This document shows, piece after piece, positions 3,318 to 60,928 of a stretch of 64,000 nt of DNA. Within the stretch, counting starts at the first letter, position 1. Each line of letters starts with the position of its first letter. Source of the DNA: Myxococcota bacterium (lineage in GTDB: Bacteria > Myxococcota_A > UBA9160 > UBA4427); assembly GCA_041690055.1 (NCBI GenBank), contig JBDNFB010000227.1:73285-137284 (forward strand). The letters are read 5' to 3'. A program made the position numbers and the translations under genes. The notes below the pieces were generated by a model, which saw only the letters and a program-made list of their open reading frames with translations, searched no databases and was not told where the DNA came from.

Positions 3318-3691
3318 AATTTGGGATCTCCTCTTCCGGATTGGAGCCCATTCCGTCACTCGGGATGGGTTCGTCGCGGTCGATGCGTCTCGCCGCCGAT
3401 TCCAAGCCTCTTTAAAAGAGGACGGCGCGCGAGGGGCGATCTATTCTCTAGACGTCAGACGTCAATCTTTCGCATCAAGTCATTCTCATCTCTCACGACT
3501 CGTTTCTAACGAGATGGAATCCTCGGCTAGGCCGGGCATTCCGCGAGAGAGGCGCAGATTAGCATGAGGCAGAAGACGAGGCGACCCTCGGGAAAAACTG
3601 CACAATCATCGATTATTTTGTACACGTCTTCCCATATGAGGCGCTCAAGGCGACTTTCACCGCGTTCAGCAACCGATCCGAATCACTCGGT

Positions 3692-25832: not shown

Positions 25833-26069
25833 ATGGCTGATCGCGGGAAAATATTTCAGAACGGGGGTAGTCAGGCCGTACGGCTGCCCAAGAGTTGTCG
25901 ATTCAAAGATGCCACGGAGGTATCTGTGCGAATAGAGGGGACGAAAGTGATTCTCGAACCAATCGACGAATGGTCGAAAACCTTCCTCGACTGCCTTGGA
26001 GCTTGGGACGAAGAGATCGAACGTCCGGAGCAAACCCCGATTTCGCGACTGAAAGACCCGTTCGATTGA
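25833..26069 (+). CDS. vapB: type II antitoxin, AbrB/SpoVT (VapB) family
   Basis: MADRGKIFQNGGSQAVRLPKSCRF...VILEP. Start moved from the track's 25782 to ATG 25833. Confidence 0.85.
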   Translation: MADRGKIFQNGGSQAVRLPKSCRFKDATEVSVRIEGTKVILEPIDEWSKTFLDCLGAWDEEIERPEQTPISRLKDPFD

Positions 26070-26464
26070 AATTCCTACTCGACACGGACTCAGTGAGCTT
26101 CGCCCTTCGTGGCGAGGGCAACGTCGCTCAGCGCCTCGCGGACCGTTCTCCGTCAGAGTTTGGCTTGAGCGCGATCTCCCTCGCCGAATTGCGCTTCGGC
26201 GCCGAGCGCCGAGGCTCACGACGTCTTCACAGACTCATCGACGCCTTCATCTCAAATATCGAAGTCGTCCCGTTCGACCCAGCCGCAGCCGATCGCTTCG
26301 GTAAGGTCGCAACCCGTCTGCAGGCCAACGGAACTCCGATCGGCTCTCAAGACACGCTCATCGCGTCCCACGCTCTCAGCCTTGGTCTAACTCTAATCAC
26401 CCACAACACAGAGCATTTCCGAAACGTTCGCGGCCTCCAATCAGAAGACTGGTTCACTCAGTAA
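26066..26464 (+). CDS. vapC: type II toxin, PIN-domain ribonuclease VapC
   Basis: LKFLLDTDSVSFAL...SAISLAELRFGA...IGSQDTLIASHALSLGLTLITHNTEHF carries the PIN acidic residues. TTG start overlaps the vapB stop (TTGA). Confidence 0.85.
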   Translation: MKFLLDTDSVSFALRGEGNVAQRLADRSPSEFGLSAISLAELRFGAERRGSRRLHRLIDAFISNIEVVPFDPAAADRFGKVATRLQANGTPIGSQDTLIASHALSLGLTLITHNTEHFRNVRGLQSEDWFTQ

Positions 26465-26723: not shown

Positions 26724-27041
26724 TTATGCGATCTTACCCAGGAGCAAGAACGCGATCACGAAACCGTAAATCGCGATCGATTCGATCAGAACCATCCCCA
26801 GAATGAAGTTGATGAACATCGAGCCGGCGGCGCCCGGGTTGCGGGCGATACCGGCCGTTGTATTGCCGGCAGTGAGGCCCTGGCCGATGCCACAGCCCAG
26901 ACCGGCGATTCCAACCGCGAGGCCGGCGCCGATGCCGATACCACCGGCACCAGAAGTTGCGCCGCCATCGGCAGCAAAGGCTACGGCGGGAGCGAGGAAG
27001 AGAACGAGGGCCCAAACGAGGACGTTGACGATACGACGCAT
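26724..27041 (-). CDS. atpE: F0F1 ATP synthase subunit c
   Basis: Two-helix proteolipid GLGCGIGQGL...ARNPGAAG...LIESIAIYGFVIAFLL. Confidence 0.9.
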   Translation of the reverse strand: MRRIVNVLVWALVLFLAPAVAFAADGGATSGAGGIGIGAGLAVGIAGLGCGIGQGLTAGNTTAGIARNPGAAGSMFINFILGMVLIESIAIYGFVIAFLLLGKIA

Positions 27042-27204
27042 ACTAATTTTCCTTTTGATCTCCCGACGCTTCGGCCGGCGAGCGATCGCTACCGGGTACT
27101 GCGCGGGACGGGTCGATTGAACAAGCTCCGGCGATTCTCCGGAACCCGCGAACGAAGCCTGTCTCCGTCCGTATTGCCTAATTTTGAGATTGAGGGGTCG
27201 CGGT

Positions 27205-27924
27205 TTAATGCGGCTCCTCCAGCGCCTGTCCGATGTAGATCATCGTCAAGAGCGCAAAAACGAAGGCTTGCAGGAAGCTCACGAGCATCCCGAGTCCCAT
27301 AAAAATTGCCGGAACAAGTAAGGGCACCATTCCGATAAAGATCACAATCACAGTGTGATCCGCGAACATGTTGGCCAGCAATCGAATCCCCAAAGTCATG
27401 ATTCGCGCGACATGCAATACGATTTCGAGGGGCAGAAAGACCGGCGCGAGAACTCGCACGTGATAGTGCGTGCCGCCGATTTCCGGCTGCCAAAGTGCGG
27501 GGCCCATGAACTGGTAGATGTACTTCCAGCCGTGCTCTCGGATACCGATGAAGTTGTAGACCACGAAGGAGAGGATCGCCCAAGCGAACGTCACGTTCGC
27601 ATCGCCGGTCGAACCAAGCAGGCCGGGAATCAGGCTCATGAAATTCGAGACCAGCACGAAAAAGAAGATCGTTCCGACAATCGGGAAATACGTTTTCCAT
27701 TCGGAACCGATCGCCGTCTCGCCAAGATCCCCGAGCATCTCGATGACAACTTCGAAGAGGTTGCGGATCGAAAACCCTTCGTCGGGAAGCACGCCACCGC
27801 CTTCGCCGCTGATAGCGCCTCTGACGGCAAGACCCGCAACGATCAGGAGGCCCGCCGCAAAGAGTGCAGACAGGTAGATCCACTCAGTGTGAATCGAATG
27901 GGCGAGGTCATAAAAAAGGTTCAT
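27205..27924 (-). CDS. atpB: F0F1 ATP synthase subunit a
   Basis: 239 aa polytopic protein with LGIRLLANMFADH (conserved Arg motif). Confidence 0.9.
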   Translation of the reverse strand: MNLFYDLAHSIHTEWIYLSALFAAGLLIVAGLAVRGAISGEGGGVLPDEGFSIRNLFEVVIEMLGDLGETAIGSEWKTYFPIVGTIFFFVLVSNFMSLIPGLLGSTGDANVTFAWAILSFVVYNFIGIREHGWKYIYQFMGPALWQPEIGGTHYHVRVLAPVFLPLEIVLHVARIMTLGIRLLANMFADHTVIVIFIGMVPLLVPAIFMGLGMLVSFLQAFVFALLTMIYIGQALEEPH

Positions 27925-28490
27925 CGGTTGCTCTCGTCAGAGGAAGGGTCGGAGGAAGCGCCAGAAGAAGAATCGGTCGCGGCGGCGTCTTCGTGCGCAT
28001 CGCTTTCGATATCTTCGAGCGGGTCAATCCATTTCAAGCGAAAAAGGTTGCCTGCCTGCAGAATACGAGGGCTTTTATCTTCGTCTTCGCGGTCGGCGTA
28101 GAGGTCATCTTCGAGGAAGGTCGGCAGGGTCGCGGGATCGAGGATCGGCGGTCGGTTCAGCCAAGCGTCGATCACGGTGGCCGGCATCGCAATTGAAAGA
28201 CCGATGACGAGCGCGATCGGATGTGCGCCTACGTACATGACGCTGAAGATCGCGGTGCCAAGCAACATGAATCGCAAAGCGAAGCCGCCAAGCCACGCAC
28301 CGGCCATAACCTGGCCCTCGAAGAGTCGCTTGGCCGTGCGGTGAATCGCGCCGAGATTCAGCGCCTCAATGAAAGCACCCGCAGCGAGGCTGGTGGCAAA
28401 ATGCGGCGTCACGAGCGCGAGGGACGCTGCCACCGCACCTGCGGACAAGCCGAGATTCCACTGTTCCACTGTGGCCAATTCAAACTTCAT
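27921..28490 (-). CDS. atpI: ATP synthase subunit I-like membrane protein with an acidic C-terminal extension
   Basis: Four hydrophobic segments, positioned immediately upstream of atpB with an ATGA overlap. The assignment rests mainly on position. Confidence 0.5.
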   Translation of the reverse strand: MKFELATVEQWNLGLSAGAVAASLALVTPHFATSLAAGAFIEALNLGAIHRTAKRLFEGQVMAGAWLGGFALRFMLLGTAIFSVMYVGAHPIALVIGLSIAMPATVIDAWLNRPPILDPATLPTFLEDDLYADREDEDKSPRILQAGNLFRLKWIDPLEDIESDAHEDAAATDSSSGASSDPSSDESNR

Positions 28491-30350: not shown

Positions 30351-33101
<2,751 letters not shown>

Positions 33102-33135: not shown

Positions 33136-35814
<2,679 letters not shown>

Positions 35815-36070
35815 TTAGACGTGCCTCAGGGACGCCAGGAGAGTACCTAAACCCCGGGGGTCGGGCAAATTCAAAACTCTCATTTTTTCTAGAATGGAAG
35901 GCATTCTGCGCTGCGAGAGCGGGCGGTTTCGCGCGGATTCAAATCCCCCTCAGGGAATATACTCAGAACGTCCTGTATCGGAGCACCTAGGAGTGAGTAA
36001 GGAAGGGGGGGCAGAGAAGAAAGCAGGTAGAGGGGTGAAAAGCCGCTTATTGGGCAGCAGCCTGCCGGTC

Positions 36071-37195
36071 TCATATCCGCATTGGCATCACAACGGCGAG
36101 GGTCTTCTCATTGTCGGATGGCGTGATTCGAGACGGAGACAGCTCGTCCTGGAAGGAAAAGCGAATCTCTTTTTCTTGGATCGCGTTAATCGCGTCAAGC
36201 AGATATTTGGCGTTGAAACCGACGGCAATCGACTCACCGGCGTAGTCGATGTCGAGTTCTTCGCGCGCATCGCCGAGATCAGGATTGCTCGAAGAAATGA
36301 CGAGCTGTCCGGGGGTAATCTCCAATTTGACTGCACGGCTTCGTTCGGAGGAGAGCAGCGCAACGCGGCGCACCGCTTGAACGAGCGAATCCGTCGGAAG
36401 AACGAGATGTCGACTCAGTTCTTTCGGGATGACCTGATTATAGTTTGGGAATTCGCCCTCGATGAGCCGCATAACAAGCGTGACATCGCCTTTGCGTGCC
36501 AAACCGCTGTTATTTGCGAACGCGAGCTCAATCTCTTCCGAATCGTCTTCATCAACGAGCCTCTTGAGTTCGCCCAGGCCTTTGCGCGGAATGATCACGC
36601 CACTGGTAAGCGCGCTCACGTCGCCTTCGATGGCGCGGTCAACACAAGCGAGTCGATGTCCGTCTGTTGCGACGAGCCGGATCTCACTGGTTTCCCCAAG
36701 AACTTCGAGATAGACGCCATTTAGGTTGTAACGCGTCTCGTCGACCGAAGCGGCGTACATCGTACGTTCGATCATTGCGGAGAGAATCGCAGAAGGAATG
36801 GGTACCGTCTTCTCTGGACTGAATTCCGGGAGTGTCGGATATTCCTCTGCCGCAGTTCCTGCGAGGGTGAAGCGACTGCGATTGCATTTGATCTCTAGAT
36901 ACGAGTTCGCGGTGGCTTCCAGTTCGATCTTATCGTCGGATAGCTCGCGTACGATCTCGAAGAGTTTCTTTGCCGAGACCGTGAGGCCGCCTGTTTCCTT
37001 CACGTCGGCGGTATGCTGACTGCGCACACCGACTTCAAGATCAGTCGCCGCAAGTTGAAGCTTCGCTTCCTTGCCTTTTTTTGGCGCTTCGATCAGCGTG
37101 TTGGCAAGGATCGGCATCGAGTTTCGTTTTTCAACGATGGACTGGATTCGGCCCAAACCACGGAGGAACTCGGTTTTTGTGATCGAGAGTTTCAT
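36071..37195 (-). CDS. dnaN: DNA polymerase III beta sliding clamp
   Basis: MKLSITKTEFLRGLGRIQSIVEKRNSMPILANTLIEA..., 374 aa, three-domain length. Ends ...LAVVMPMRI. Confidence 0.95.
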   Translation of the reverse strand: MKLSITKTEFLRGLGRIQSIVEKRNSMPILANTLIEAPKKGKEAKLQLAATDLEVGVRSQHTADVKETGGLTVSAKKLFEIVRELSDDKIELEATANSYLEIKCNRSRFTLAGTAAEEYPTLPEFSPEKTVPIPSAILSAMIERTMYAASVDETRYNLNGVYLEVLGETSEIRLVATDGHRLACVDRAIEGDVSALTSGVIIPRKGLGELKRLVDEDDSEEIELAFANNSGLARKGDVTLVMRLIEGEFPNYNQVIPKELSRHLVLPTDSLVQAVRRVALLSSERSRAVKLEITPGQLVISSSNPDLGDAREELDIDYAGESIAVGFNAKYLLDAINAIQEKEIRFSFQDELSPSRITPSDNEKTLAVVMPMRI

Positions 37196-37940
37196 CCACT
37201 GTCTCTTCTGTTTAGATTTTTAAAATTTAAAGAGTAGTAGTAGAGAGTGATAGAGAACCGGACAAAACGAATGCAACCCTTTGACTTCAAAGTCTTTATG
37301 GGAATATCCGATGGATGTCAGGGGGGCCCGTTTTCGACAAAGGAAAAGGAGCCGGGCTCTAAAGCTCTCGTTCTGTCGGCAGAGTAACACGGGCACGCTC
37401 GTTCTGGTCCGGGCCGTTGCGAAATCGCTGCGTCCTGCTGGCGGTGTTGAGATGGGTCTGGTGGGGGGTAGGATTTCCGGGTGGTTGGCTCTCGATCCGA
37501 AAAACACTCGAATCCGAAAAGCAGTGGTAGAACGATGCATTGACAGGTTGAGACCGGGCCGGGTACCTTGTCGCGCTTCCCGGGACAGCGTTCGATTCCA
37601 TGGTCTTTTCGAAGAGCAACTGAGCTCCTTGCCACGCATGTCGAATTCCCGCGAAATCGCAGAGTGAACACCGATCGATAGAGAATCGATTCCGAATCGT
37701 CATTGAACCAGGCAATTAGTAAAGTTGCCAGAACCGGTCGGGCCGACCAATGCATCGTCGGCACCAGACCCAAGGGTTTCCCGAACAGCGTAAAACGTGC
37801 AAGGCATGCTTTCTCTTCTTTTGTAGGAGAGGGGCGTTTCCGGGCCGAACACGTTGATCCTATACCGAAACATGCAGACGCAGTTTGCGGTCGGTGAATG
37901 GTGCGGGCAGAACCTGTAGAGAGAGTGAGGATCCGCAGAG

Positions 37941-38090
37941 ATGAAGCGGACTTTTCAGCCGAGCCGAATCAAGCGTCTTCGAAAGCATGGCTTCCGACAG
38001 CGAATGAAGACCAAAGCAGGTCGTGCGATTATCAAGCGCCGCCGAGCCAAGGGTCGAAAGAGCCTCGCCGCCACCGCCGCGTCCAAGTAG
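37941..38090 (+). CDS. rpmH: 50S ribosomal protein L34
   Basis: Below the ORF-track size cut-off. Hand translation: [49 protein letters not shown]. Confidence 0.92.
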
Positions 38091-38092
38091 GG

Positions 38093-38590
38093 ATGGGCGA
38101 GGCGACCGGCCGTTTTCGGCGGTCGGACCGGCTCCTGGACTCAAGGGATTATCTACGCGTCATGAGACGTGGGCGTCGTCACGCCAATGGTGATCTCGTT
38201 GTGATTTCGGCGCCGAAGAGACAAAACCCTCGAAAAGACGAGGACTTGAGCGCTCCCAAGGAAACAGGGAAGCGCTGCCGGGAGATCCTCGCCAGCGACT
38301 TGGCGGACAACCGGATCGGAATTACCGCGAGCCGGAAAGTCGGCAATGCGGTCGTTCGGAATCTCTTCAAACGGCGGATCCGAGAGTGGTTTCGGGCTCG
38401 CCGACGTGATCTGGGCGAGAGCCGTGATTTTGTCGTGATTGCCCGGCGCTCGGGAGCAGCGATGAACTTGGCTGATCTCGATCGATGCATGTCCAAACTA
38501 TTAGAGTTGGATCCATCATCGCGCTGGCAGGCTGCGCCAGCGGGAACGGATTCCTCAAAGACGTGTAACGCGCCTGTGGGGGCCTTCTGA
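38093..38590 (+). CDS. rnpA: ribonuclease P protein component
   Basis: Starts 2 nt after the rpmH stop. [22 protein letters not shown]...[24 protein letters not shown] (RNR motif). Confidence 0.85.
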
Positions 38591-38862
38591 TGAATGCGAA
38601 GGCGGTTCCGTGCTGTAAAGATGCGGCCTCGTCCCCCTCTTCGTCCCCCTCTACGAATCCGTTGATTCGGGCGCTTTTTGGGCTCTATCGCGGCGGAATT
38701 CGACCTTTTTTCGGCCCGAGCTGCCGTTTCATTCCCTCTTGCTCTGAATTTACGGAGGAGTCGATCGGGCGTTACGGACTCTTTAGGGGCGTTTGGCTCG
38801 GGCTGCTCCGGATTCTTCGCTGTCATCCCTTTCATCCAGGCGGCTACGACCCCGTTCCGTAG
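38590..38862 (+). CDS. yidD: membrane protein insertion efficiency factor YidD
   Basis: [10 protein letters not shown]...[14 protein letters not shown]. 1-nt overlap with the rnpA stop. Confidence 0.88.
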
Positions 38863-39039: not shown

Positions 39040-40770
39040 TTGGATCGAAACACCCTTTTTGCCATCGCGCTCTCAATCGTCGTCGTCGGGCTCTATCAGA
39101 CCTACGTCCTTCAGACGCGTGAAGAAGTACTGCTCGAGACGGCGCAAGTAGAGGAGATCCCCGCTGCGGGTTCTTCATCCTATCTGGAGGAGGCTCAAGG
39201 GACGGAGACTGGGTTGGATGCCGGCGAAGCGGGTTCGTCCGTAGGCCAGGCAACGTCCGCTTCGGCGGATAGGGCTGATAGTGCATCTCGAACGAGTTTG
39301 TCGGTACCGTCGGCGCCCGTGGAATCGTGGATGCTGTCGAACGATAAGGTCGTGGCGAAGATTTCGAATGACGGCGCCTTGATTTCCAGCTGGGCGCTGC
39401 GCGAGTACGATGAGCGTCTTCCGGACGGGGATATTCCGATAGAGCTGGTCAACGCTGCGACCCCGGTTCTGAACACGGATATTTCGGGCGTGTCTGGCGC
39501 GTCCTTCGCGAATTCGCGTTTTAGGTTCGTGGAAAAAACGGCGCGCAAGGTTGTACAGAGGGCGGAGACGGAAGCGGGCGTTCTCACGCGCACGATTCAG
39601 TTAGACGAAGCGGGTTATGGTTTCGGCCTCGATCTTGCGTTTGAGAGTCACCGCGTCGACCCGATCGACGTTTCCTTCGAGGTGCATTGGCCCGCGAAGA
39701 TGACCGAGCGGCAAGACTTTCAACAGCTTGCGTTGCTGGCGTACGGTGATGAGGGGGGCGTGACGCGAACCCTCGTTCCGGGCGTCGGCCAACCGGGTTT
39801 TCTTGGATTCGGTGGGTCTTCGGACGGGATTGAGCGGATCGACGATCGCGTGATGTGGGCTGGCTTCGATATTCAGTACTTCGTCGGCGTCATCATTGAT
39901 CCCGAGGGACGCGATCGCCTTGATGTTCAATTCGAGCAGGTAGAGGCGCGGGAGAGCGCGTTTGCGAGGGTAACACTTCCGAGTGTGTCTATCGGCTCAG
40001 GTGGATCCGCGAACGAATCTCTGCGCGGCTTCTTCGGACCGAAGGCGCCGGATGCTCTCTCTGCGGTGGGACTTGGTCTCGAACATACGGTGGATCGTGG
40101 CTGGAGTTGGTTGGAGCCGCTCACGCGTTTCTTTGAGATGGCGCTCGACTGGCTCTACAAGTTCATCCCGAATTACGGCGTAGCAATCATCGTGCTGACT
40201 CTTCTTGTGCGCATCGTTACGGCGCCGCTCACCGTAAAGCAGATGCGTTCCGCGGAACGCATGCGCGAAGTGAAACCGAAGATGGACGCGCTTCAGTCGA
40301 AGTACAAAGACGATCGGCAAAAGCAGTCTGAGCAGTTGATGAAGCTTTATAAGGAAGAAGGCATCAATCCGCTGAGCGGCTGCTTTCCGATTTTCCTGCA
40401 GATGCCGGTGTTGATTGGCTTGTTCTACGCGCTTCGCACTTCAATTGGGCTCCGACATGCTCCGTTCGGTCTTTGGATCACGGATCTCTCACAGCCGGCC
40501 ACATTGTTCACGATTCCCGGGGTCGATTTCCCGGTTCGGATTCTTCCTCTCGTCATGGGCGCGAGCATGTTCGTGCAGCAGAAGATGATGCCGCAGGCCG
40601 GTATGGATCCCGTCCAGGCTCGTCTGATGCTGATCATGATGCCGGGGATGATGCTTTTAATTTCCTACACTTTTCCTTCTGGACTCGTGCTCTACTGGAC
40701 GGTGAGCAACCTCTTGGGCATCGCTCATCAGTATTGGATCCGGAACAAGATGCAGCCGTTGAATGGCTGA
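39040..40770 (+). CDS. yidC: membrane protein insertase YidC
   Basis: N-terminal TM MDRNTLFAIALSIVVVGLY, large periplasmic domain, then YGVAIIVLTLLVRIVTAPLTVKQMRS...GCFPIFLQMPVLIGLFYAL. Confidence 0.92.
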   Translation: MDRNTLFAIALSIVVVGLYQTYVLQTREEVLLETAQVEEIPAAGSSSYLEEAQGTETGLDAGEAGSSVGQATSASADRADSASRTSLSVPSAPVESWMLSNDKVVAKISNDGALISSWALREYDERLPDGDIPIELVNAATPVLNTDISGVSGASFANSRFRFVEKTARKVVQRAETEAGVLTRTIQLDEAGYGFGLDLAFESHRVDPIDVSFEVHWPAKMTERQDFQQLALLAYGDEGGVTRTLVPGVGQPGFLGFGGSSDGIERIDDRVMWAGFDIQYFVGVIIDPEGRDRLDVQFEQVEARESAFARVTLPSVSIGSGGSANESLRGFFGPKAPDALSAVGLGLEHTVDRGWSWLEPLTRFFEMALDWLYKFIPNYGVAIIVLTLLVRIVTAPLTVKQMRSAERMREVKPKMDALQSKYKDDRQKQSEQLMKLYKEEGINPLSGCFPIFLQMPVLIGLFYALRTSIGLRHAPFGLWITDLSQPATLFTIPGVDFPVRILPLVMGASMFVQQKMMPQAGMDPVQARLMLIMMPGMMLLISYTFPSGLVLYWTVSNLLGIAHQYWIRNKMQPLNG

Positions 40771-40804: not shown

Positions 40805-41794
40805 ATGTACGACGCGCGCCAAGAACCGAATGAATTTATTGCGGATAGCCTCAGCGAGGCGAAGGAAAATGCTTGTCAGTTTTTTGAAGTAGAAGAATCG
40901 GATCTCCGGTTTGTGATTTCGAAGGACGGCGAGATCTATGGAGCGACGGGGCGAAGTATCGTTGTTGCCACACCGAAGACCATCACGAGTGGGCCTCCCC
41001 GAGGGAATTCTGATGATGGGGGCCGCGGTGGCGATCGTGGGCCCCGTAAAGAATCCCGCGGGGGCGGTGAGCGCGGCGGTCGTGGTGAGGGGCGGAGCGA
41101 AGGTCGTGGCGAAGGCCGCGGGCCTCGTGGTGGCCGTGAGCGCGGTGGACGCAGCGAAAGCAGTAGTGAGGGCCGGGGTGAAGCTCGCAGTGAGGGTCGC
41201 AGTGAAGCTCGTGGTGACAGCAGCGGCGAAACCAGCCTTCCTCCAGCTCGAGAAAAGCTGTCCGCGGAACCGCAGGCTGCGGTCGCCGGTTCAAAGGGCA
41301 TGGCGAAGGGTAAGATCGGTCCGATCGGTGATTTCTTGCTCGGTGCTGTCGAGCGAATGAAGCTTGGCTCCTTCGAGATTTCTGAGTCTTCTGAGGGCGA
41401 CTTTCTTATCTATCAGTTGAACGGTCCTGCGGCAGAAGCACTTCAGGGCGGGGACGGACGTGCGACGGACGCCCTGCAGCTGGTCGCCAACCAGGTTTCG
41501 ATGCGACAGAGCGAGGATGCGCCGCGAATCGTGGTGGATGTTGAGGGTGGCGGAGACGAACGCGACGACACGATGAACCGCCTTGCAGACCGTGCAGTTA
41601 AACGAGCTCGCGAGACCGGCCGGTCGATTGCGTTGGATCCGATGAACTCCCGAGACCGACGCGCGATTCATATCGCGATTCGCGACGTTGATGGCGTGGC
41701 CACGATGAGCATCGGGGAAGGCCGATATCGCCAGGTCCTGGTTGTTCCGGAAGGCGCGCCGGAATACGAAGACGCGCTGGCAGACAACAACTAG
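40805..41794 (+). CDS. jag: Jag/KhpB-like RNA-binding protein (Jag_N, KH-like and R3H domains) with an RG/RSE-rich insert
   Basis: Position after yidC. C-terminal R3H region LDPMNSRDRRAIHIAIRDVDGVATMSIGEG..RQVLV. Confidence 0.8.
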   Translation: MYDARQEPNEFIADSLSEAKENACQFFEVEESDLRFVISKDGEIYGATGRSIVVATPKTITSGPPRGNSDDGGRGGDRGPRKESRGGGERGGRGEGRSEGRGEGRGPRGGRERGGRSESSSEGRGEARSEGRSEARGDSSGETSLPPAREKLSAEPQAAVAGSKGMAKGKIGPIGDFLLGAVERMKLGSFEISESSEGDFLIYQLNGPAAEALQGGDGRATDALQLVANQVSMRQSEDAPRIVVDVEGGGDERDDTMNRLADRAVKRARETGRSIALDPMNSRDRRAIHIAIRDVDGVATMSIGEGRYRQVLVVPEGAPEYEDALADNN

Positions 41795-41972: not shown

Positions 41973-42653
41973 ATGAAAAACGGCGATACTCGAGATCAAA
42001 GCGAGGTCGCCGTTTTTTCTTTTCTGCGCTCCGGACTGGACCAGCTGGACCTCCACTATGAGGAGACTCAAGTGGTGCAGCTCACCGAGCTGGTTTCGAT
42101 ATTGTCGGCATGGGCAGCTCGGATCAATTTGACTGGGCACAGAACCCCGCTCGAGATGGCGAGCGGACTGGTCCTTGACGCGGCTGCGCTCGTCGCCTGC
42201 CTACCTGAGATTTCCGAAGCAGAGTCTTTGGCCGACTTGGGGACCGGCGCGGGTTTCCCCGGTCTCCCCATCGCGATCCTCAAGCCCCATCTCCAGGTGT
42301 CGCTCGTGGACTCCCGGAAGAAGCGCAACCACTTCCAACGGGAGGTGCGCCGCCGTCTATCGCTCAGGCATGTGACTCCGTTTCTCGGTCGGGTTGAAGA
42401 GCTTGAGGTCAGGCCGAGCCAGGTTGTGATTGCCCAAGCAATGACCCAGCCCGACCTCGCCCTGAAGCTCATGCATCCTTGGGCAGAAGAAGGTGGTCTC
42501 GTGATACTCCCCGCCTCGGAGGCTGCGGTTCAACCCATTCCACCGCAAGGCATCGAGACTCCTGAGCTGCGGGAATATCAGGTTCCCCAATCCGGAACTC
42601 TTCGAAAGCTCTGGGTAGCGCGAGTTCTGGAGGCCGCTGACTCAGCTTCCTAG
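41973..42653 (+). CDS. rsmG: 16S rRNA (guanine527-N7)-methyltransferase
   Basis: INLTGHRTP...LADLGTGAGFPGLPIAI...VSLVDSRKKR. Confidence 0.85.
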   Translation: MKNGDTRDQSEVAVFSFLRSGLDQLDLHYEETQVVQLTELVSILSAWAARINLTGHRTPLEMASGLVLDAAALVACLPEISEAESLADLGTGAGFPGLPIAILKPHLQVSLVDSRKKRNHFQREVRRRLSLRHVTPFLGRVEELEVRPSQVVIAQAMTQPDLALKLMHPWAEEGGLVILPASEAAVQPIPPQGIETPELREYQVPQSGTLRKLWVARVLEAADSAS

Positions 42654-42838: not shown

Positions 42839-42854
42839 CGTTCCACGTGAAACA
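42839..42854. other. near-consensus parS site CGTTCCACGTGAAACA
   Basis: 15/16 match to TGTTNCACGTGAAACA, about 150 bp upstream of parA. Confidence 0.7.
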
Positions 42855-43000
42855 ATGGATATTCCCCACTCCCATTGAACTCGACCTGTGGTAAAAACCG
42901 CGGCTAAGCCTCCGCGTATGCGGAGGCACACGCGTGCCCGCTCTACTAGAGCGAGAGACGAGTGCCTTTCCGCCAACAGACCCAACCGAGAACACAGAGA

Positions 43001-43864
43001 ATGGCTTCCAGCCCCTACGTGATTGCGGTCGTGAACCAGAAGGGTGGAGTCGGTAAAACGACGTCCGCCGTAAATTTGGCAGCCTGCCTCGCTGCCTCAG
43101 AGCGCCCAACGCTACTGATTGACATGGACCCGCAGGCAAACGCCAGCAGTGCATACGGCATCGTCAAGGCCGATCGCCAGATCTATGACGCGCTGATCGA
43201 CCAAGTTCCCCTAACGCATTGTGCGTATGAGACGGAGCTCGAAACCCTGCATGTCGTTCCTGCCGGTAGAGACCTCGTGGGCGCCGAGATCGAGCTCGTC
43301 TCCATAGAGTCCCGCGAGTACCGATTGTCTCAGTCAATTGAGGCAATGGGCGACGCATATGAGATTATTCTGATCGACTGCCCGCCCTCGTTGGGATTGC
43401 TAACGCTCAATGCGCTCACAGCAGCGGACGCAGTGCTCATTCCGCTTCAATGCGAATACTATGCACTCGAAGGCCTGGCGAACCTCGTGGAGACCGTTGA
43501 ATTGGTGCGGGGACAACTCAATCCGCGATTGGCGATTCAGGGCATCGTCCTGACGATGGTCGACCAGAGAAACAATCTCGCGAAGCAGGTGGAAGCAGAA
43601 GTGCGAAGCCATTTCGCGGACCGCGTGTATCGCACCCGGATTCCGAGGAATATTCGTCTCTCGGAAGCGCCCAGTCATGGCCAGCCGATTCTGCTCTACG
43701 ACATTCACTCCAAGGGTGCCGTGGCCTACGTGAAGCTCGCGGATGAGCTCCTCGCGCAGCTCGCTCTGACCGAACAACCGCGCAAGCCCCCGGTGCTTCC
43801 GTATGTCCAGCAAGCCGAACCAGAACAAACCAACAAGGGAGGTGATGATGAGCCAGCGTCGTAG
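43001..43864 (+). CDS. parA: chromosome partitioning ATPase ParA/Soj
   Basis: VIAVVNQKGGVGKTTSAVNLAA (deviant Walker A), LIDMDPQANAS, ILIDCPPSLG. Start is ATG 43001 or the track's 42962. Confidence 0.9.
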   Translation: MASSPYVIAVVNQKGGVGKTTSAVNLAACLAASERPTLLIDMDPQANASSAYGIVKADRQIYDALIDQVPLTHCAYETELETLHVVPAGRDLVGAEIELVSIESREYRLSQSIEAMGDAYEIILIDCPPSLGLLTLNALTAADAVLIPLQCEYYALEGLANLVETVELVRGQLNPRLAIQGIVLTMVDQRNNLAKQVEAEVRSHFADRVYRTRIPRNIRLSEAPSHGQPILLYDIHSKGAVAYVKLADELLAQLALTEQPRKPPVLPYVQQAEPEQTNKGGDDEPAS

Positions 43865-44840
43865 TGCATTGGGCCGAGGACTAGGCGCCCTGATTTCAAA
43901 TCCTCCGGCACGCAACGAGCGCGACGCGAACCGCTCGCCCGGTGCTCCTGCCGAAGCGCCGAGCACGACGACGCCGTCAACACGCAATAGTGTTGACACT
44001 GAAAGGAGTCGATCACAAGCGGAAACGGTAGGTAGAGGGCCGCAGGAGCTTGACATCGCGCTCATCGACCCAAACCCCGAACAGCCTCGAAGAGAATTTG
44101 ATCCCGCCGCACTGGAACAGCTTGCTCGTTCAATCGGGCAGCATGGCGTGCTTCAGCCTGTCGTTGTCCGCCGAGCAGGAAGCCGATTCGAACTGATCAT
44201 GGGCGAGCGGCGCTTCCGTGCGAGTCAAATTGCTGGACGGAAGAAGATCCCCGCCGTCGTCGCCGAAGTAGATCCAGACGATCGGTTAGAACTCGCCATC
44301 ATTGAGAACGTCCAGCGCGAAGATCTGAACCCAATCGAGTTGGCCCTGGCGTATCACGCGCTTGCGGAAGCGGGGCATACCCAGGCCGAAATAGGAAGGA
44401 AGGTCTCGAAGGACCGCTCCTCGATCGCAAATCATATTCGCTTGCTCGACCTGAGCCGCACTATCCAGTCCGATGTCGAGGCAAACCGCCTGAGTATGGG
44501 GCACGCGAAAGCCCTATTGAGCCTTCAGGATCTGGAAGCGAGAGAGAAACTGCGTGCGCAGATTCTCCACGAATCGCTCTCCGTGCGCGCGGCCGAGCGA
44601 GCGGTACGCGACATCACTCGGGGCGGAAAGGTTGCCGAGAAGGGAACGAAGGCCCCGTCAGCCCCGACTGCGGCTCTCGATGCAGATACGCGGGCCTTTA
44701 TGGAGCGCATCGAACGGCATCTACAGACAAAAGTCACGCTGCACCCCAACGCAGGTGGTGGCGGTAAGATCGAGATCAACTATTTCAATTTCGAAGACCT
44801 GGAACGACTCGGGCAGATGCTTCTGGGAGACGAGCGGTGA
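43845..44840 (+). CDS. parB: chromosome partitioning protein ParB/Spo0J
   Basis: GGAGGTG precedes ATGATG. RRSALGRGLGALI, NPEQPRREFD, LQPVVVRR and IMGERRFRA. Confidence 0.9.
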   Translation: MMSQRRSALGRGLGALISNPPARNERDANRSPGAPAEAPSTTTPSTRNSVDTERSRSQAETVGRGPQELDIALIDPNPEQPRREFDPAALEQLARSIGQHGVLQPVVVRRAGSRFELIMGERRFRASQIAGRKKIPAVVAEVDPDDRLELAIIENVQREDLNPIELALAYHALAEAGHTQAEIGRKVSKDRSSIANHIRLLDLSRTIQSDVEANRLSMGHAKALLSLQDLEAREKLRAQILHESLSVRAAERAVRDITRGGKVAEKGTKAPSAPTAALDADTRAFMERIERHLQTKVTLHPNAGGGGKIEINYFNFEDLERLGQMLLGDER

Positions 44841-45214
44841 GTCAGGATGCGAAGAACCAGAGAACAAAATTTCCCGAATTTCCCGCATCAGAAGAGGCTC
44901 TGGTACCCGACGGAGGCGTCTTTGAAGGGCAGGTGGCCGTCGCGGGCCCGACGCGAATTGACGGTATCGTGCGAGGAAGGCTGCGGGGCCCCGGAACCTT
45001 GCTGATTGGACGCACCGGACGCGTCGAGGGCCAAATTGACTGTGCCGAGGTCGTTGCGCAGGGAGTCGTCATTGGTCCGATCAACGCCGAGCAGCGAGCT
45101 TGTCTCGATGCCGGGTCGCATTTCGAGGGCGATCTTGCTGCCCCGGTGCTCCAGGTGCATGACGATGCCGTGTGGATCGGGCAGGCGCGGATCGGGCAGC
45201 CCACTCGAGACTGA
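44837..45214 (+). CDS. bactofilin-family polymer-forming cytoskeletal protein
   Basis: Beta-helical bactofilin repeat pattern VFEGQVAVAGPTRIDGIVRGRLRGPGTLLIGRTGRVEGQIDCAEVVAQGVVIGPI...FEGDL. GTG start overlaps the parB stop (GTGA). Confidence 0.8.
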   Translation: MSQDAKNQRTKFPEFPASEEALVPDGGVFEGQVAVAGPTRIDGIVRGRLRGPGTLLIGRTGRVEGQIDCAEVVAQGVVIGPINAEQRACLDAGSHFEGDLAAPVLQVHDDAVWIGQARIGQPTRD

Positions 45215-45916
45215 TTCAGCGAAAGAGCCGGACGGCGTGGCGCGCGAGCACGGCGCTGTCCTTCACGCAATTACCCCCGCCGCGGAAAACACGCGTGCCG
45301 GATCAATTTCTCCGCCCCCAGACGCTTGAATTGCCGCCCTCGCGGTGCCAGAATTGCCGCCGCTCGATCTTGTAGCCACGCTGGCAGGCAAAGCGGACCC
45401 GAGCCTTGGTCAATCAGTCAACAAATCGTTGCGTCTCGCCCCATTACGAGCCGAATCGTGGTACCCACCTGCGGCACACGAGGTCGATTCGCTCGGTTAA
45501 GATCGAGCCATCGGAGCCGCAGGACCCGTCAAAGGTTCCGATGCCAACCAGTGTGACGCCAGCGAGAAGCGACCCAACATCGGCTGGCGATCGGGCCAAC
45601 TAACGAGCAACTCATAACCCGAATCAAACGCAACTAGAGCAAACCAGAGCTCAACCAAGCCCGAAAAAAACCAAATACGGATCCGGGACCCAAAGAAAAT
45701 CAAGCGCCACGCGATCGAATCAACGAAGCGTGACGCGTACTCAGAGCCCCTGCGGCGCCACAAAGCCCATGAGCCGAGGAATTGAAATTGACGGATGACT
45801 CAACACATTCATCCGGGAGCGATCACTTCGTGCGAAAAAGCCCAAATTCGTCCACTCGCGGTAAAGAAATCGAAACTTCGAGTGCTTCTCGTCCTTCTTA
45901 TATACTGAGCCGGCCG

Positions 45917-46480
45917 ATGAGCCCAGTCACTCGCGGCGCGTTTGCAATGCTTGTGGCCGGAGTCGTGGCCACAGTGGCCTTTGATCCTTCGGCTGCGCTG
46001 GCCTCAGACCAACTTGAGCTGATTCCGGACTACGCGCTTTTTGGCCTTTTAGGATACGGGCCTGGCCTCGGCCTGATGTGGAAGATGCTGATCGGCTTTT
46101 CGCTGCTCGTGTTTCCGCTCAACCTGCTTATCTTCCAGCCGATCTTCGGTGCGCTCAATGAACGTGCAGAACGGATCCAGGGCGCACGTATCCGCTCGAA
46201 CCAGCTTCAAGCTGAGGCAGACAATGTGCTCGAACGATATGAATCGACAATCCGCGAAGCCCGCAGCGATTCCGAATCCGACCGCCAAGTGCAGTTGTTA
46301 GGCGCGCGTGAAGAACAAAGTAATTTGACGAAGCAGGCGCGAAGCGAAGCCGAGCACGAACTTGAGGCGGCGCGATCCGAACTCGAACTCTCCCTCGAAG
46401 ATGCGCGCAGTACGCTCCGCGCCAGCGCTGAAGACCTCGCCCAAGCGGCGGCTGAACAAGTCTTGGGAAGGGCACTTTAA
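45917..46480 (+). CDS. F0F1 ATP synthase subunit b' (b-like)
   Basis: Single N-terminal TM, then a long charged helix PIFGALNERAERIQG...EAE.... First gene of the atp F1 cluster. Start ATG 45917 is chosen over the track's TTG 45782. Confidence 0.7.
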   Translation: MSPVTRGAFAMLVAGVVATVAFDPSAALASDQLELIPDYALFGLLGYGPGLGLMWKMLIGFSLLVFPLNLLIFQPIFGALNERAERIQGARIRSNQLQAEADNVLERYESTIREARSDSESDRQVQLLGAREEQSNLTKQARSEAEHELEAARSELELSLEDARSTLRASAEDLAQAAAEQVLGRAL

Positions 46481-46482
46481 TC

Positions 46483-47136
46483 ATGAAGAACGCTCCGAAT
46501 CCGACTCCCCACAAGGCATCCAAGACGCCTAAGACCCAGACCGCGAGCAGAACCCAACTCATGCGTATCGCTCTGACTCTTTTCTTCGTAGGCATGGCTG
46601 GCGTGGCCCAAGCCGCCGGTGCAGAGAAGACCGACGCAGAACTCATGAAAGAAGCGATCTGGCAGGGGATCAACCTCATCCTGATCATCGGCGTGATCTG
46701 GTACTTCGGACGCGGCCCCATCAGCGAATTCTTTTCCGGCAGACGCGAGGGCATTCGTAACGAGCTCGCAGAATCCGCTGACCTCCTGCGCCAGGCAGAA
46801 ATTCGCAACTCCGAGCTCCAGCGAAAGCTGGTTGATCTCGCAAGCGAAGTGGCGAGTATCAAGACGACCGCAACGGCACGTGCGCAGGAAGAAGCAGCTC
46901 GCATCCTTTCGGACGCGGAAGCGACCGCGGAGCGAATTCGAACAGATGCCAAGGCCGCGATCGAGCAGGAGCTCAACCGAGCGAAGTCAAAGCTGAGGGA
47001 CGAAGCCGCTGACCTCGCTCTGCAGTTGGCGTCCCAAAAGCTCAAGGACAATGTCGGGGACGCGGATCGCGACCGACTGATCGACGAATTTATCACTCGC
47101 GTTGAACCGTCGGCCGATGCCGGCGCGCGCAGCTAG
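46483..47136 (+). CDS. atpF: F0F1 ATP synthase subunit b
   Basis: TM INLILIIGVIWYFGRGPISEFFSGRREGI, then a charged coiled coil. Confidence 0.8.
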   Translation: MKNAPNPTPHKASKTPKTQTASRTQLMRIALTLFFVGMAGVAQAAGAEKTDAELMKEAIWQGINLILIIGVIWYFGRGPISEFFSGRREGIRNELAESADLLRQAEIRNSELQRKLVDLASEVASIKTTATARAQEEAARILSDAEATAERIRTDAKAAIEQELNRAKSKLRDEAADLALQLASQKLKDNVGDADRDRLIDEFITRVEPSADAGARS

Positions 47137-47146
47137 GAGCCCATCC

Positions 47147-47725
47147 ATGAAGGGCGGTACCGCGGCCTATCGATATGCGAAGGCCCTATTCAGTCTGGCG
47201 CAGGATGACCATCGTCATCGTGAAGTGCGCAGCGAAATCGAAGCGCTTCGCGACTTGTTCGACGGCACGCGAGAAATTCGCGATGCGCTTCTCACACCGG
47301 CGCATCCGGCGAGCGAGCGAAAGGCGGCGCTCCGCGCGATCGCCGATCACGCCTCGATCAGCCCGGTGGTCAAAAATTTCGTCTCGTATTTGATCGATCA
47401 GCGTCGCTTGATCAATTTTAACGACATCGTCGAATCGTACGGTCAACTCGCCGATCGGGCAGAGGGCATGGTCACGGCGGAAGTCGTTTCTGCGAGTCCG
47501 ATGGATGATCGACGTAAAGACCGCCTGCGCCGCGCGCTCTCCGAGCGCACAGGCCAGGAAGTCCGTCTGGAGATCGAGGTTGATCCCTCGCTCATCGGCG
47601 GCGCCATCGCGAAGGTCGGAGACCTTGTCTTCGACGGCAGCCTACGCACGCAACTCGGACAGTTGCGCGCCAACCTTTCCGGTACGGCCAGTACCGGCGC
47701 TTCTAACGCTACGAAGGGATCCTGA
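47147..47725 (+). CDS. atpH: F0F1 ATP synthase subunit delta (OSCP)
   Basis: AGGAG is 7 nt before ATG 47147. AAYRYAKALFSLA...IGGAIAKVGDLVFDGSLRTQL. Confidence 0.85.
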   Translation: MKGGTAAYRYAKALFSLAQDDHRHREVRSEIEALRDLFDGTREIRDALLTPAHPASERKAALRAIADHASISPVVKNFVSYLIDQRRLINFNDIVESYGQLADRAEGMVTAEVVSASPMDDRRKDRLRRALSERTGQEVRLEIEVDPSLIGGAIAKVGDLVFDGSLRTQLGQLRANLSGTASTGASNATKGS

Positions 47726-47728
47726 AAG

Positions 47729-49282
47729 ATGGACATCAAGCCCGGAGAAATCACCGATATCCTCAAGCGGGAGATCAAGGATTACGACCGCGAGATCGAC
47801 GTCGCCGAAACCGGAACGGTTTTGAGCGCCGGTGACGGTATCGCTCGTGTCTATGGCCTCGAAAACGCACTCGCCGGCGAGCTCGTCGAATTTGCGGGCG
47901 GCCTGCGCGGCATGGTCCTCAACCTTGAGGAAGACAATGTCGGTGTGGCCATCATGGGTGGCTCACGCAGCGTGAAGGAAGGCGATCTCGTTCGCCGAAC
48001 CGGACGCATCATCGAGGTTCCGGTCGGGGAGCAGCTACTCGGTCGCGTGGTAGACGCACTCGGCGTGGCCATCGACGGCAAGGGTCCCATAAGCAACGAG
48101 GTGACTCGCCAGGTTGAGCTCAAGGCCCCGGGCATTGTTGCTCGTAAGTCGGTCGATGAATCGATGGCGACGGGCATCAAGGCAATTGACGCCATGGTGC
48201 CGATTGGTCGTGGACAGCGCGAGCTGATCATTGGCGATCGCCAGACGGGCAAGACCGCGATTGCGATCGATACGATCATCAACCAGAAGGGCAAGGACGT
48301 GATCTGCGTCTATGTCGCCATCGGCCAGAAGCAGTCGACGGTTGCGCAGGTTGTGGACAAGCTGAAGCAGCACGGCGCGATGGACTACACCATCGTGGTC
48401 GCCGCAACGGCCGCCGATCCGGCCCCGCTCCAGTACATCGCGCCGTACACCGGCGTCACGATGGCTGAGCATTTCGGACATAACGGCAAGCACGTCCTCA
48501 TCGTTTATGATGATCTCTCCAAGCAGGCCGTGGCGTATCGCCAGCTCTCGCTTCTTCTGCGCCGGCCGCCGGGACGTGAAGCGTATCCGGGCGACGTGTT
48601 TTACGTCCATTCGCGACTCCTTGAGCGCGCATGCAAGCTCTCCGATGCACTCGGTGGCGGTTCTATTACGGCCCTTCCGATCATTGAGACCCAGGGCGGC
48701 GACGTGTCGGCCTATATCCCGACGAATGTTATTTCCATTACGGATGGCCAGATCTTCCTCGAAACGGATCTGTTCAACTCGGGTGTTCGGCCCGCCATTA
48801 ACGTCGGTCTTTCGGTGTCGCGCGTCGGCGGTGCTGCGCAGACCAAGGCCACGAAGGCGGTCGCGGGTCAGCTCAAGCTTAACCTCGCGCAGTACCGCGA
48901 AATGGCGGCGTTCGCGCAGTTCGGTTCGGACCTCGATGCGGCGACGCAGGAACAGCTCGCCAATGGCGCACGGCAGACGGAGATCCTCAAGCAGGGCCAG
49001 TATTCGCCGCTCGCGATGGCAGAGCAGGTCGTCTCGATCTACGCCTCGACGCCCCGGCAGGGTCGAGAATCCTGGATCCGCCGGCTCGAGCTGACTGATA
49101 TCGGGCGATACGAGGAGGAGATGCTTGATTGGATGCGGTCGAGCAACGGCGACATTCTTTCGGCGATCAAGGACTCGGGCAAATTCGAAGACGCGACGGA
49201 ACAAAAGTTGGTCGCCGCGCTCGACGAGTTCGCGAAGATCTTCCAGCCCACGGTTGGAAAGAGCAAGACTGAGGCCGCCTAA
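47729..49282 (+). CDS. atpA: F0F1 ATP synthase subunit alpha
   Basis: [20 protein letters not shown] (P-loop) and full-length alpha-subunit similarity. Confidence 0.97.
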
Positions 49283-50170
49283 GTGCCGAACCTGAAAGAC
49301 ATCAAGCGACGCATCGTCAGCGTCCAATCGACGCAGAAGATCACGTCTGCCATGAAAATGGTGGCTGCGGCAAAGCTGCGACGTGCCCAGGATTCGATCG
49401 AGAGAGCGCGTCCCTATGCGACGCGCATGCGATCGACGCTTGAGGAAGTTTCGAAGGGCACCCTCGAAGAGACGCATCCTCTCCTCGAAGTCCACGAAGA
49501 CCGCAAGGCACTTGAGGTCGTCGTCGTGACGTCCGATCGCGGCCTCGCGGGCGGCTTCAACTCGGCCGTCTGCAAACAAGCGGACAGAGTGTTGGCGGCC
49601 CGCGGTGCGGACTTTTCGAAGATCGGGCTGACGCTTCTCGGGAAAAAAGGGGGCGAATATTTCCGCCGCCGGCGACCGAGCCAGATCACCCATGCGGCGG
49701 CGATCGATGGCGACGTGACGTACGCGCAAGCGGCGGATGTGGCTCGCGAACTCGCGCGGCGCTACGAAGCCGGCGAGCTCGATGAAGTGATCTTGGTCTT
49801 CAGCGAATTCGTTTCGACGATGACGCAGACGCCCAGGTCGTCCTCGCTTTTGCCATTCACGCCACCGGCAGCGACTTCAGCAGCAGGGGGGGATGGCTGC
49901 GAAGACGCGTCACTTCCCTTCGAGATCGAGCCGGATCCGGAAGCGCTGCTTGCGGCGCTCGTTCCGAAGGCGGTCGAGATCGAAGTGTTCCGCGCTCTGC
50001 TTGAGAATCAGGCTGGCGAACACGCGGCTCGAATGACTGCGATGGAAGCGGCGACGAAGAATACGGAAGAGCTGATCGAAGCCCTTAGCCTCAAGTACAA
50101 CCGCGCACGTCAGGCTGCGATTACGAGTGAGCTTGTTGAGATCGTGACCGGCGCGCAGGCGCTGGAGTAG
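49283..50170 (+). CDS. atpG: F0F1 ATP synthase subunit gamma
   Basis: MPNLKDIKRRIVSVQSTQKITSAMKMVAAAKLRRAQ...ITSELVEIVTGAQAL. Confidence 0.95.
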   Translation: MPNLKDIKRRIVSVQSTQKITSAMKMVAAAKLRRAQDSIERARPYATRMRSTLEEVSKGTLEETHPLLEVHEDRKALEVVVVTSDRGLAGGFNSAVCKQADRVLAARGADFSKIGLTLLGKKGGEYFRRRRPSQITHAAAIDGDVTYAQAADVARELARRYEAGELDEVILVFSEFVSTMTQTPRSSSLLPFTPPAATSAAGGDGCEDASLPFEIEPDPEALLAALVPKAVEIEVFRALLENQAGEHAARMTAMEAATKNTEELIEALSLKYNRARQAAITSELVEIVTGAQALE

Positions 50171-50332
50171 GGCTCGGATAAATAAATTTTGGTTGCGGCC
50201 GCCCTCAATCGCCCTAAATAGGGGCGAATACAGGCCACAAGAGACACCGCAACGCTAACGAGCACGCAGCTGCCGACCCCGCAGCCCGCATGCGACAGCC
50301 AGAACGACACCGACCCAGATCGTGTGGCCTAA

Positions 50333-51784
<1,452 letters not shown>

Positions 51785-57372: not shown

Positions 57373-57758
57373 GGGCGCCGGACTCTAGCGGACTCCGCGA
57401 GGCCGTCAGAGCGGTCGGGTCAGCCGAGCGGGTCTGGTGCGGATTACGTCCCGGAGCAGCCGCGCGGTGCACACGGCCCGCAGAAACTTGCGCTCCAGGG
57501 ACCGGTTTTCCGCCTGCTCTGGAATCTTCCGCTGGTACTTCATAAGCACGTGCCTATTACGATAAGTAACTGTGCCTAAAAGCGAAATCGAATTCGAGTG
57601 GGTCAAGCAACACGTTCGCAACTCCGAATGAAACCTGAGCAACACATGGAGTGTTGTCCGGGCAGCTGTGCCCTGAATCCACGGGAGCCCGCGACCGGGT
57701 GTTCTCTGGTTCGATTATCAACGATCACTCGAAAGAGCGAAACGCATGCCCTCGCGGC

Positions 57759-60848: not shown

Positions 60849-60928
60849 CTCAAGACATTCGCCGGCCGGAAGGCTGGAGGATCAGCATGGCGTCCCGATG
60901 GGTCGCTCATAAATGGGAAGGATCAACA

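Follow-up and report, generated by a model that had tools for sequence, protein, structure and literature searches.

Gene order and content of the rpmH/dnaN gap

We analysed a 64-kb stretch of contig JBDNFB010000227.1 from an uncultured Myxococcota_A bacterium (hereafter the window; all coordinates are positions within it), in which the genes for ribosomal protein L34 (rpmH) and the DNA polymerase III beta clamp (dnaN) diverge across a gap of 745 base pairs (bp) at 37196-37940. The subject of this report is the gap itself, which is likely to be the chromosomal replication origin (oriC) of this organism. From the gap, dnaN-gyrB-gyrA runs leftward and the set from rpmH to parAB runs rightward. 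An initial annotation of this DNA, made from the sequence alone, had described these divergent genes and the 745-bp distance between them, and its gene map was borne out by Pfam:

30351-33101, minus strand: gyrA (Pfam)
33136-35688, minus strand: gyrB (Pfam)
36071-37195, minus strand: dnaN, 374 amino acids (aa), N-terminus MKLSITK (Pfam DNA_pol3_beta N-terminal, central and C-terminal domains; start residue the same in homologues)
37941-38090, plus strand: rpmH (Pfam Ribosomal_L34)
38093-38590, plus strand: rnpA (Pfam)
38590-38862, plus strand: yidD (Pfam)
39040-40770, plus strand: yidC (Pfam)
40805-41794, plus strand: jag (Pfam)
41973-42653, plus strand: rsmG (Pfam)
42962-43864, plus strand: parA (Pfam)
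43803-44840, plus strand: parB (Pfam)

The initial annotation had also seen no credible open reading frame (ORF) in the gap, and indeed none of the gap ORFs had a Pfam match at E ≤ 1. A comparison of the gap with Rfam gave no credible family (the sole match was a meaningless small nucleolar RNA, E = 0.84), and no tRNAs were found in it. Coding or known-RNA content was therefore rejected for lack of Pfam, Rfam or tRNA support. The length of the gap varies from 277 to 904 bp among relatives, with large indels, which also makes coding unlikely.

No dnaA lies at the gap, as had been noted before. The Bac_DnaA domain occurred in none of the large ORFs of the window that were scanned with Pfam, and tblastn with an Escherichia coli DnaA query returned only noise in the window and nothing in the gap. 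The same query found no dnaA in the roughly 6 kb fetched on each side of dnaN at 80 related loci. On the basis of these tblastn and Pfam scans, we rejected both a dnaA remnant in the gap and a dnaA elsewhere in the window or the 80 loci. recF is likewise absent between dnaN and gyrB, where a spacer of about 380 bp (35689-36070) holds no Pfam-recognisable ORF; alignments of relatives suggest that the true start of gyrB lies about 20 codons downstream of the GTG at 35688.

Related loci were collected by a scan of GTDB species representatives with DnaN, which yielded the 80 loci (DnaN identity 62-95%), including UBA4427 and UBA9160 (GTDB Myxococcota_A, class UBA9160). Comparisons of the gap were based on 78 orthologous gaps, namely the window and the 77 relatives with upstream DNA. 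Metagenomes contain hundreds of close DnaN homologues, of which the few named ones are labelled as Myxococcota or Deltaproteobacteria metagenome-assembled genomes (MAGs); the clade consists wholly of uncultured MAGs. On UBA9160 and UBA4427 the literature offers taxonomy only. The order jag-yidC-yidD-rnpA-rpmH, gap, dnaN-gyrB-gyrA without dnaA was found in 77/77 relatives with upstream DNA; the arrangement is therefore ancient and stable in the class and not a recent accident.

A conserved core of boxes, trios and AT-rich DNA beside dnaN

Enrichment of 7-mers across the 78 gaps placed CTACTAC at the top (z = 31), followed by TTTTGTC, TTTGTCC and TTTGTCG (z of about 17) and then by two promoter-like blocks. 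The first two groups mark a core of 75 bp adjoining dnaN, which reads, on the minus strand toward the gene, GTTTTGTCCG, GTTCT, CTATCAC, TCT, CTA CTA CTA C, an AT-rich run, AGAAGAGA and ATG. Together with the sites in the 110 bp beyond it, its features are:

37202-37209, minus strand: dnaN ribosome-binding site AGAAGAGA, a purine-rich block just before the ATG, conserved in the close clade
37211-37231, no strand: AT-rich stretch of 21 nt with one C, a candidate DNA unwinding element (DUE) by composition and duplex stability
37235-37243, plus strand: DnaA-trio-like TAG TAG TAG (CTACTACTA in the dnaN sense); no other (CTA)3 run occurs in the window
37247-37253, minus strand: box 2, CTATCAC, with (C/T)TGTC(A/G)C in relatives (alignment of relatives)
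37259-37268, minus strand: box 1, GTTTTGTCCG, the best conserved DnaA-box-like site (enrichment and fixed position)
37304-37310, plus strand, opposite to box 1: box C, ATATCCG, with TTGTCCG in relatives (conserved alignment columns)
37315-37320, plus strand, opposite to box 1: box B, ATGTCA (conserved alignment columns)
37333-37342, minus strand: box A, CTTTGTCGAA (conserved [CT]TGTCG column in the leader alignment)
37371-37379, plus strand: box D, TTCTGTCGG, conserved in the close clade and overlapping the predicted dnaN transcription start (near 37374)

No 30-bp duplex in the 64 kb is less stable than the one that begins at 37211, the first position of the AT-rich run: it scores -29.5 kcal/mol, whereas the mean is -44.8 (standard deviation 3.3). 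The initial annotation had pointed to DUE-like DNA of low GC content beside dnaN, in agreement with the GC fraction of 0.30 that we obtained over 37180-37259. In the close clade the A/T composition of the run is kept and its sequence is not.

Both boxes of the core hold fixed positions. In most loci box 1 is found 69-72 nt before the dnaN ATG, and the TGTC core of box 2 begins 9 nt before the first trio. From box 1 to box 2 the offset of the TGTC cores is 12 nt in 20 loci and 8 nt in 11 distant ones. The density of TT[CT]TGTC[CG] is 40 times higher in the gaps than in coding flanks, and its occurrences are clustered. In some distant loci the place of box 1 is taken by TTCTATCCA(C), TTTTATCCG or TTTCATCCG, which links the motif to the TTATCC half of a DnaA box and to a DnaA-box ancestor; near-canonical variants at this position include TTCTATCCAC in locus L062 and TTTTATCCG in locus L045.

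About six TGTC[C/G] boxes are present in all, those of the outer group (A-D, in both orientations) occupying fixed alignment columns up to about 185 nt from the ATG. Information content in the 27 closest loci is 1.2-2.0 bits per position for the boxes and the CTA repeat (1.4-1.8 for the trios), compared with 0.3-0.8 bits for the spacer of about 6 nt between the boxes. A composite pattern, with two in-frame CTA units coming after a TGTC box at a distance of at most 20 nt, was found in 34 of the 78 dnaN-proximal segments, as against 0/78 on the opposite strand, 0/20,000 random coding 140-mers and 0/542 other tiles of the gaps.

A metagenome scan for a second copy of the core, using the box 2 and trio pattern TGTCNCTYYCTACTACTA, returned the same dnaN-upstream site in 8 of the 120 listed matches; the other listed matches arose by chance in low-GC or coding DNA, and none stood beside a DnaA homologue. 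One contig (L128, Ga0315291_10157383) carries box 1, box 2 and the trios on its minus strand near position 169 (ATTTTGTCCG...TGTCCCTCCCTACTACTAC), followed by unrelated low-complexity sequence and no dnaN, an arrangement that is probably an assembly artefact at the contig end.

Canonical DnaA boxes and genome-specific motifs

The absence of canonical DnaA boxes reported by the initial annotation was upheld. In the window, TTATCCACA occurs 70 times at up to 2 mismatches (70.8 expected), and there is no enrichment in the window or the 78 gaps. The count of one such match in or beside the gap was too low, as there are two, at 37192-37200 and 37331-37339; box A overlaps a 2-mismatch match, TTTTCGACA, on the plus strand. 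Given the lack of enrichment, canonical and known-variant DnaA boxes were rejected as the sites of the gap.

Two other motifs had been put forward as candidate boxes. Both recur as described: ATCCGAAAA is present twice (37495 and 37512), and TCGAWTCC is found three times exactly in the gap (37508, 37592 and 37686), with two further near-matches. The two copies of ATCCGAAAA sit in a short repeat:

37489-37523, plus strand: 17-nt tandem duplication holding both copies of ATCCGAAAA, genome-specific

Neither motif is conserved in relatives. ATCCGAAAA was found in 0/77 gaps of relatives, and the duplication is missing even in the closest one (L002). Over the window TCGAWTCC occurs 14 times against 13 expected, its cluster in the gap being nominally unusual, and its density in the 78 gaps is only 1.8 times that of coding flanks. 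Because both are specific to this genome, we rejected them as origin boxes. They are located between the two divergent promoters described below and inside the variable rpmH leader.

Predicted promoters and leaders in the gap

The two promoter-like blocks among the enriched 7-mers correspond to divergent predicted promoters, one for each flanking gene:

37381-37391, minus strand: dnaN promoter, extended -10 element CGTGTTACTCT (TGnTACTCT; conserved pattern)
37540-37569, plus strand: rpmH promoter, TTGACA (37540-37545), 18-nt spacer, TACCTT (37564-37569; conserved pattern)
37576-37940, plus strand: rpmH leader, about 365 nt, with a ribosome-binding site GAGGA at 37927-37931 (this block conserved, the rest poorly)

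The conserved block CAGAGTAACACG (37380-37391) is CGTGTTACTCT on the dnaN strand. On that strand (C)GTGnTAnnnT is present in 75 of the 78 gaps, 158-283 nt upstream of the ATG, and in 17 of 18 close relatives the predicted dnaN leader measures 180-184 nt. Since the extended -10 element lies upstream of the boxes and trios, dnaN would be transcribed through the whole box and trio region. Toward rpmH, TTGACA-N18-TAnnnT was found in 53 of the 78 gaps, and ATTGACAG is among the top enriched k-mers; relatives differ in how far this promoter stands from rpmH (56 to 594 nt).

The conserved core was also examined for expression signals of other kinds. A sigma-70 promoter with box 2 as its -35 and the AT-rich run as its -10 was rejected: the -10 is not conserved in GC-richer subclades and the CTA repeat is, and the extended -10 element about 190 nt upstream displaces it as well. 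A simple promoter scan gave only one site, which is not conserved. RNA structure (a hairpin sequestering the Shine-Dalgarno sequence, or a structured leader) was likewise rejected as the cause of the conservation, as RNAalifold returned weak energies (-1.7 kcal/mol for the proximal 88 nt and -5.0 for the whole leader) with covariation terms of about 0, and the only 'stems' are inverted copies of the box motif.

The rpmH side of the gap is less constrained. Its leader can be only partly aligned, even to the closest relative, and at 37576-37925 it exceeds that of distant relatives by about 300 nt, their promoter standing 56-110 nt from rpmH; the extra DNA has no match elsewhere in the window. 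Two nested, perfect 11-nt inverted repeats are also present in the gap (37453-37463/37762-37772 and 37532-37542/37748-37758), the inner of which copies the sequence just upstream of the rpmH -35 (ACGATGCATTG). By a rough estimate 0.1 such pairs are expected by chance in 900 nt, and they are not conserved in relatives.

GC skew across the window

GC skew is negative over the left 31 kb of the window and positive to the right. To remove coding bias, genes were split by strand. From the left to the right of the gap, plus-strand genes change from -0.21 to -0.04 in skew at third codon positions (GC3) and from -0.035 to +0.025 at all positions, and minus-strand genes from -0.015 to +0.026 at all positions. 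Within these 64 kb, the change has the polarity of an origin and not of a terminus.

Comparison with known origins

The gap was compared with the basal unwinding system (BUS; Richardson 2019, Pelliciari 2021) of Firmicutes. A further reference for box orientation is box R1 of E. coli relative to its DUE. A BUS comprises one or two DnaA boxes, a spacer of up to 16 bp (peak 10-13 bp), at least three trios of the form 3'-NAN-5' (consensus 3'-GAT-5') and an AT-rich region, and a box is accepted at no more than 2 mismatches to the standard motif (PMC8287927). In Clostridioides difficile, oriC2 upstream of dnaN has the trio strand CTACTACTATTACTACTA and then the DUE (PMC7561715). The gap agrees with the Firmicute systems (incC/oriC2; Bacillus subtilis, C. 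difficile) in place, directly upstream of dnaN, and in order and orientation: tandem boxes, a short spacer, CTA trios on the dnaN-sense strand, an AT-rich stretch and dnaN, with the element transcribed into dnaN in both. TAG TAG TAG matches the trio consensus perfectly and is preceded by GAG, giving three or four consecutive trios. The succession of box, CTA trios on the same strand and AT-rich DNA seen in the window is conserved in 34 of the 78 loci, in that orientation only. Between the 9-mer TTGTCCGGT (37265-37257) and the first trio lie 13 nt, a spacer inside both the 0-16 bp range and the 10-13 bp peak.

In other respects the gap differs from a Firmicute BUS. Upstream of the element there is no dnaA, and a dedicated extended -10 promoter takes its place. 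The boxes read TT[G/A]TC[C/G]G instead of TTATCCACA and exceed 2 mismatches because the CACA half is gone. The box cluster on the rpmH side, which flanks dnaA in Firmicutes, has no clear counterpart.

A dnaN-side origin without dnaA is not in itself new, with precedents in Sorangium (predicted) and in cyanobacteria. The oriC of Sorangium cellulosum So ce56 was predicted beside dnaN and not dnaA, with TTATCCCCC boxes (Gao and Zhang 2008, PMC2650636). Sorangium resembles our case in being a myxobacterial lineage with a dnaN-adjacent predicted origin and in that TTATCCCCC keeps TTATCC and not the ACA end. Unlike the gap, its origin has a kinase gene and not rpmH on the other flank, its boxes are TTATCCCCC as opposed to TTGTCCG, and no trios have been described. 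Sorangium also belongs to GTDB Myxococcota and the present organism to Myxococcota_A, which are different phylum-level lineages. The cyanobacterial oriC adjoins dnaN, with dnaA elsewhere and boxes of the form TTTTCCACA (PMC4009838). It is similarly dnaN-linked and dnaA-unlinked with a lineage-specific box, an arrangement attributed to dnaA having translocated out of an ancestral dnaA-dnaN origin. In contrast to those of the gap, however, its boxes are easily detected and retain the CCACA half, its other neighbour is not rpmH, and some of the origins have been confirmed experimentally.

Interpretation and alternative explanations

We consider it likely that the rpmH/dnaN gap is the chromosomal oriC of this uncultured bacterium of class UBA9160. 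The gap most likely occupies the ancestral rpmH / dnaA-dnaN position and no longer holds dnaA. Ori-Finder counts dnaA, dnaN, rpmH, gidA and others as indicator genes (PMC10225481); dnaN and rpmH flank the gap, with rsmG and parAB nearby and a parS-like site at a distance of 5 kb as further origin-type neighbours. Of the usual hallmarks of oriC, an AT-rich candidate unwinding element is found next to the boxes, and a cluster of DnaA boxes of the TTATCCACA type or a known lineage variant is not. The boxes are probably lineage-specific DnaA-box-like sites. In a mechanism modelled on the BUS of B. subtilis, DnaA encoded elsewhere would dock on boxes 1 and 2 through its domain IV, and DnaA-ATP would oligomerise through domain III onto the strand with the TAG repeat. 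The adjacent AT-rich stretch would then open for helicase loading, so that unwinding and the start of replication would both take place here. Of the divergent promoters, that at 37381-37391 would read through the boxes and trios into dnaN, and that at 37540-37569 would drive the rpmH operon. A more specific possibility, which we advance tentatively and regard as doubtful, is that UBA9160 re-specified the double-strand anchor (TT[G/A]TC[C/G]G, without the CACA half) and kept the (TAG)n single-strand trio code fully intact.

Several observations weigh against an origin at this site. Neither the window nor the 78 gaps show enrichment of TTATCCACA, TTGTCCACA or TTTTCCACA when up to 2 mismatches are allowed, and TTGTCCGGT itself has 4 mismatches to TTATCCACA and 3 to TTGTCCACA. 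The 8-nt tandem spacing of the boxes in distant relatives is tight for two domain IV monomers, and roughly half of the more distant relatives have degenerate trios or none. The cumulative GC-skew minimum, computed on 64 kb of the replicon, falls at 31.8 kb, which is 5.7 kb from the gap. The dnaA of the lineage was not located in the 64-kb window or in the flanks of about 6 kb around dnaN at the 80 loci. Lastly, the core lies wholly inside the predicted 180-nt dnaN leader at a near-constant distance from the ATG, which would fit an element of expression control too.

The main alternative is that the conserved block serves expression only, as a dnaN operator or leader that may be bound by DnaA as a transcription factor or by another regulator, with the origin elsewhere beside the displaced dnaA. 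The boxes, trios and AT-rich run are all downstream of the extended -10 element and inside a leader of constant length, box 1 is fixed about 70 nt from the ATG, box D sits on the predicted transcription start of dnaN, and canonical DnaA boxes are absent. We nevertheless think this explanation unlikely. RNAalifold predicts no stable or covarying structure in the proximal 88 nt or the whole leader, and an operator would leave unexplained both why a perfect TAG repeat of period 3 adjoins the window's least stable duplex and why the skew switches with origin polarity. Transcription of the core is no argument against an origin, because the BUS of B. subtilis also lies within the transcribed dnaA-dnaN spacer, where dnaN is transcribed through incC.

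Another explanation accepts the gap as an origin and assigns the TGTC[C/G] boxes to some reader that is not DnaA, for instance a regulator specific to the lineage that binds the origin, or supposes that DnaA is anchored by another factor and reads only the trios. Such a reader would avoid the difficulty of a motif without the CACA half being read by canonical DnaA domain IV, and it would suit the 8-nt tandem spacing of distant relatives, which is unusual for DnaA boxes, as well as the lack of enrichment of canonical ones. The motif, however, shares the TT[G/A]TCC half with DnaA boxes and is correctly oriented toward the trios, near-canonical TTCTATCCAC and TTTTATCCG occur at the same position in two relatives, Sorangium is predicted to use TTATCCCCC, and no candidate binder was identified in the window; on balance we regard a different reader as improbable.

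The initial annotation had offered two readings, an origin whose boxes are non-canonical and a scar from the relocation of dnaA. The trios, the box cluster, the skew and the class-wide conservation favour the former. Of the latter, no more holds than that an rpmH/dnaN locus of otherwise ancestral appearance lacks dnaA. That the gap could be a functionless scar of dnaA excision with only two promoters, as the missing gene and the poorly conserved, length-variable central and rpmH-proximal parts might suggest, seems very improbable to us: across a class-level clade the 190 bp nearest dnaN show strong conservation of sequence, spacing and length, as a relic would not. Judged by this conservation, the gap is under strong selection and is therefore not a relic.

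Implications

With an oriC at the rpmH/dnaN gap, class UBA9160 of GTDB Myxococcota_A, a class-level lineage without any cultured member, would have its first origin model. Such an origin would mean that oriC predictors keyed to TTATCCACA rest here on indicator genes and skew alone, and that a lineage matrix for such predictors could consist of GTTYTGTCSG boxes and CTA trios beside dnaN. It would further represent an independent case of a trio and AT-rich module staying by dnaN after the departure of dnaA, and so would support the unwinding module, and not linkage to dnaA, as the conserved heart of bacterial origins. In practice, it would offer an anchor for rotating and orienting MAG assemblies and for peak-to-trough estimates of growth rate in this group. 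If the anchor was indeed re-specified, either domain IV of the clade's DnaA should have changed its specificity or a second protein should anchor DnaA, and the clade would be a natural experiment on which of its two halves the unwinding system cannot do without. Current understanding is not overturned by any of this.

Other features of the window

The spacer between rsmG and parA, which is the usual spot for a centromere site near an origin, holds a candidate of this kind:

42839-42854, plus strand: parS-like site CGTTCCACGTGAAACA in the rsmG-parA spacer (2 mismatches to the parS consensus)

It is the sole match in the window (0.12 expected by chance) and lies 5 kb from the gap. A bactofilin gene (44837-45214, plus strand) follows immediately after parB, an order similar to that of parA, parB and bactofilin genes in Myxococcus.

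The putative origin separates two groups of ATP synthase genes, with atpI, atpB (subunit a) and atpE (subunit c) to its left on the minus strand at 26724-28490, and two b-type subunits, delta and alpha to its right on the plus strand within 45782-51784. The ORFs that follow the alpha subunit are presumably gamma and beta. Both sets are co-oriented with the direction of replication predicted from the gap.

A 229-aa ORF at 2670-3359 (minus strand) has a partial Ribosomal_L3 match and is apparently solitary, not within an S10-type ribosomal protein operon. A gene for a PIN-domain, toxin-like protein (25895-26464, plus strand) is situated about 11 kb from the putative origin, and two neighbouring large proteins with DUF11 repeats (1065 and 381 aa) are encoded at 57651-61990 (plus strand).

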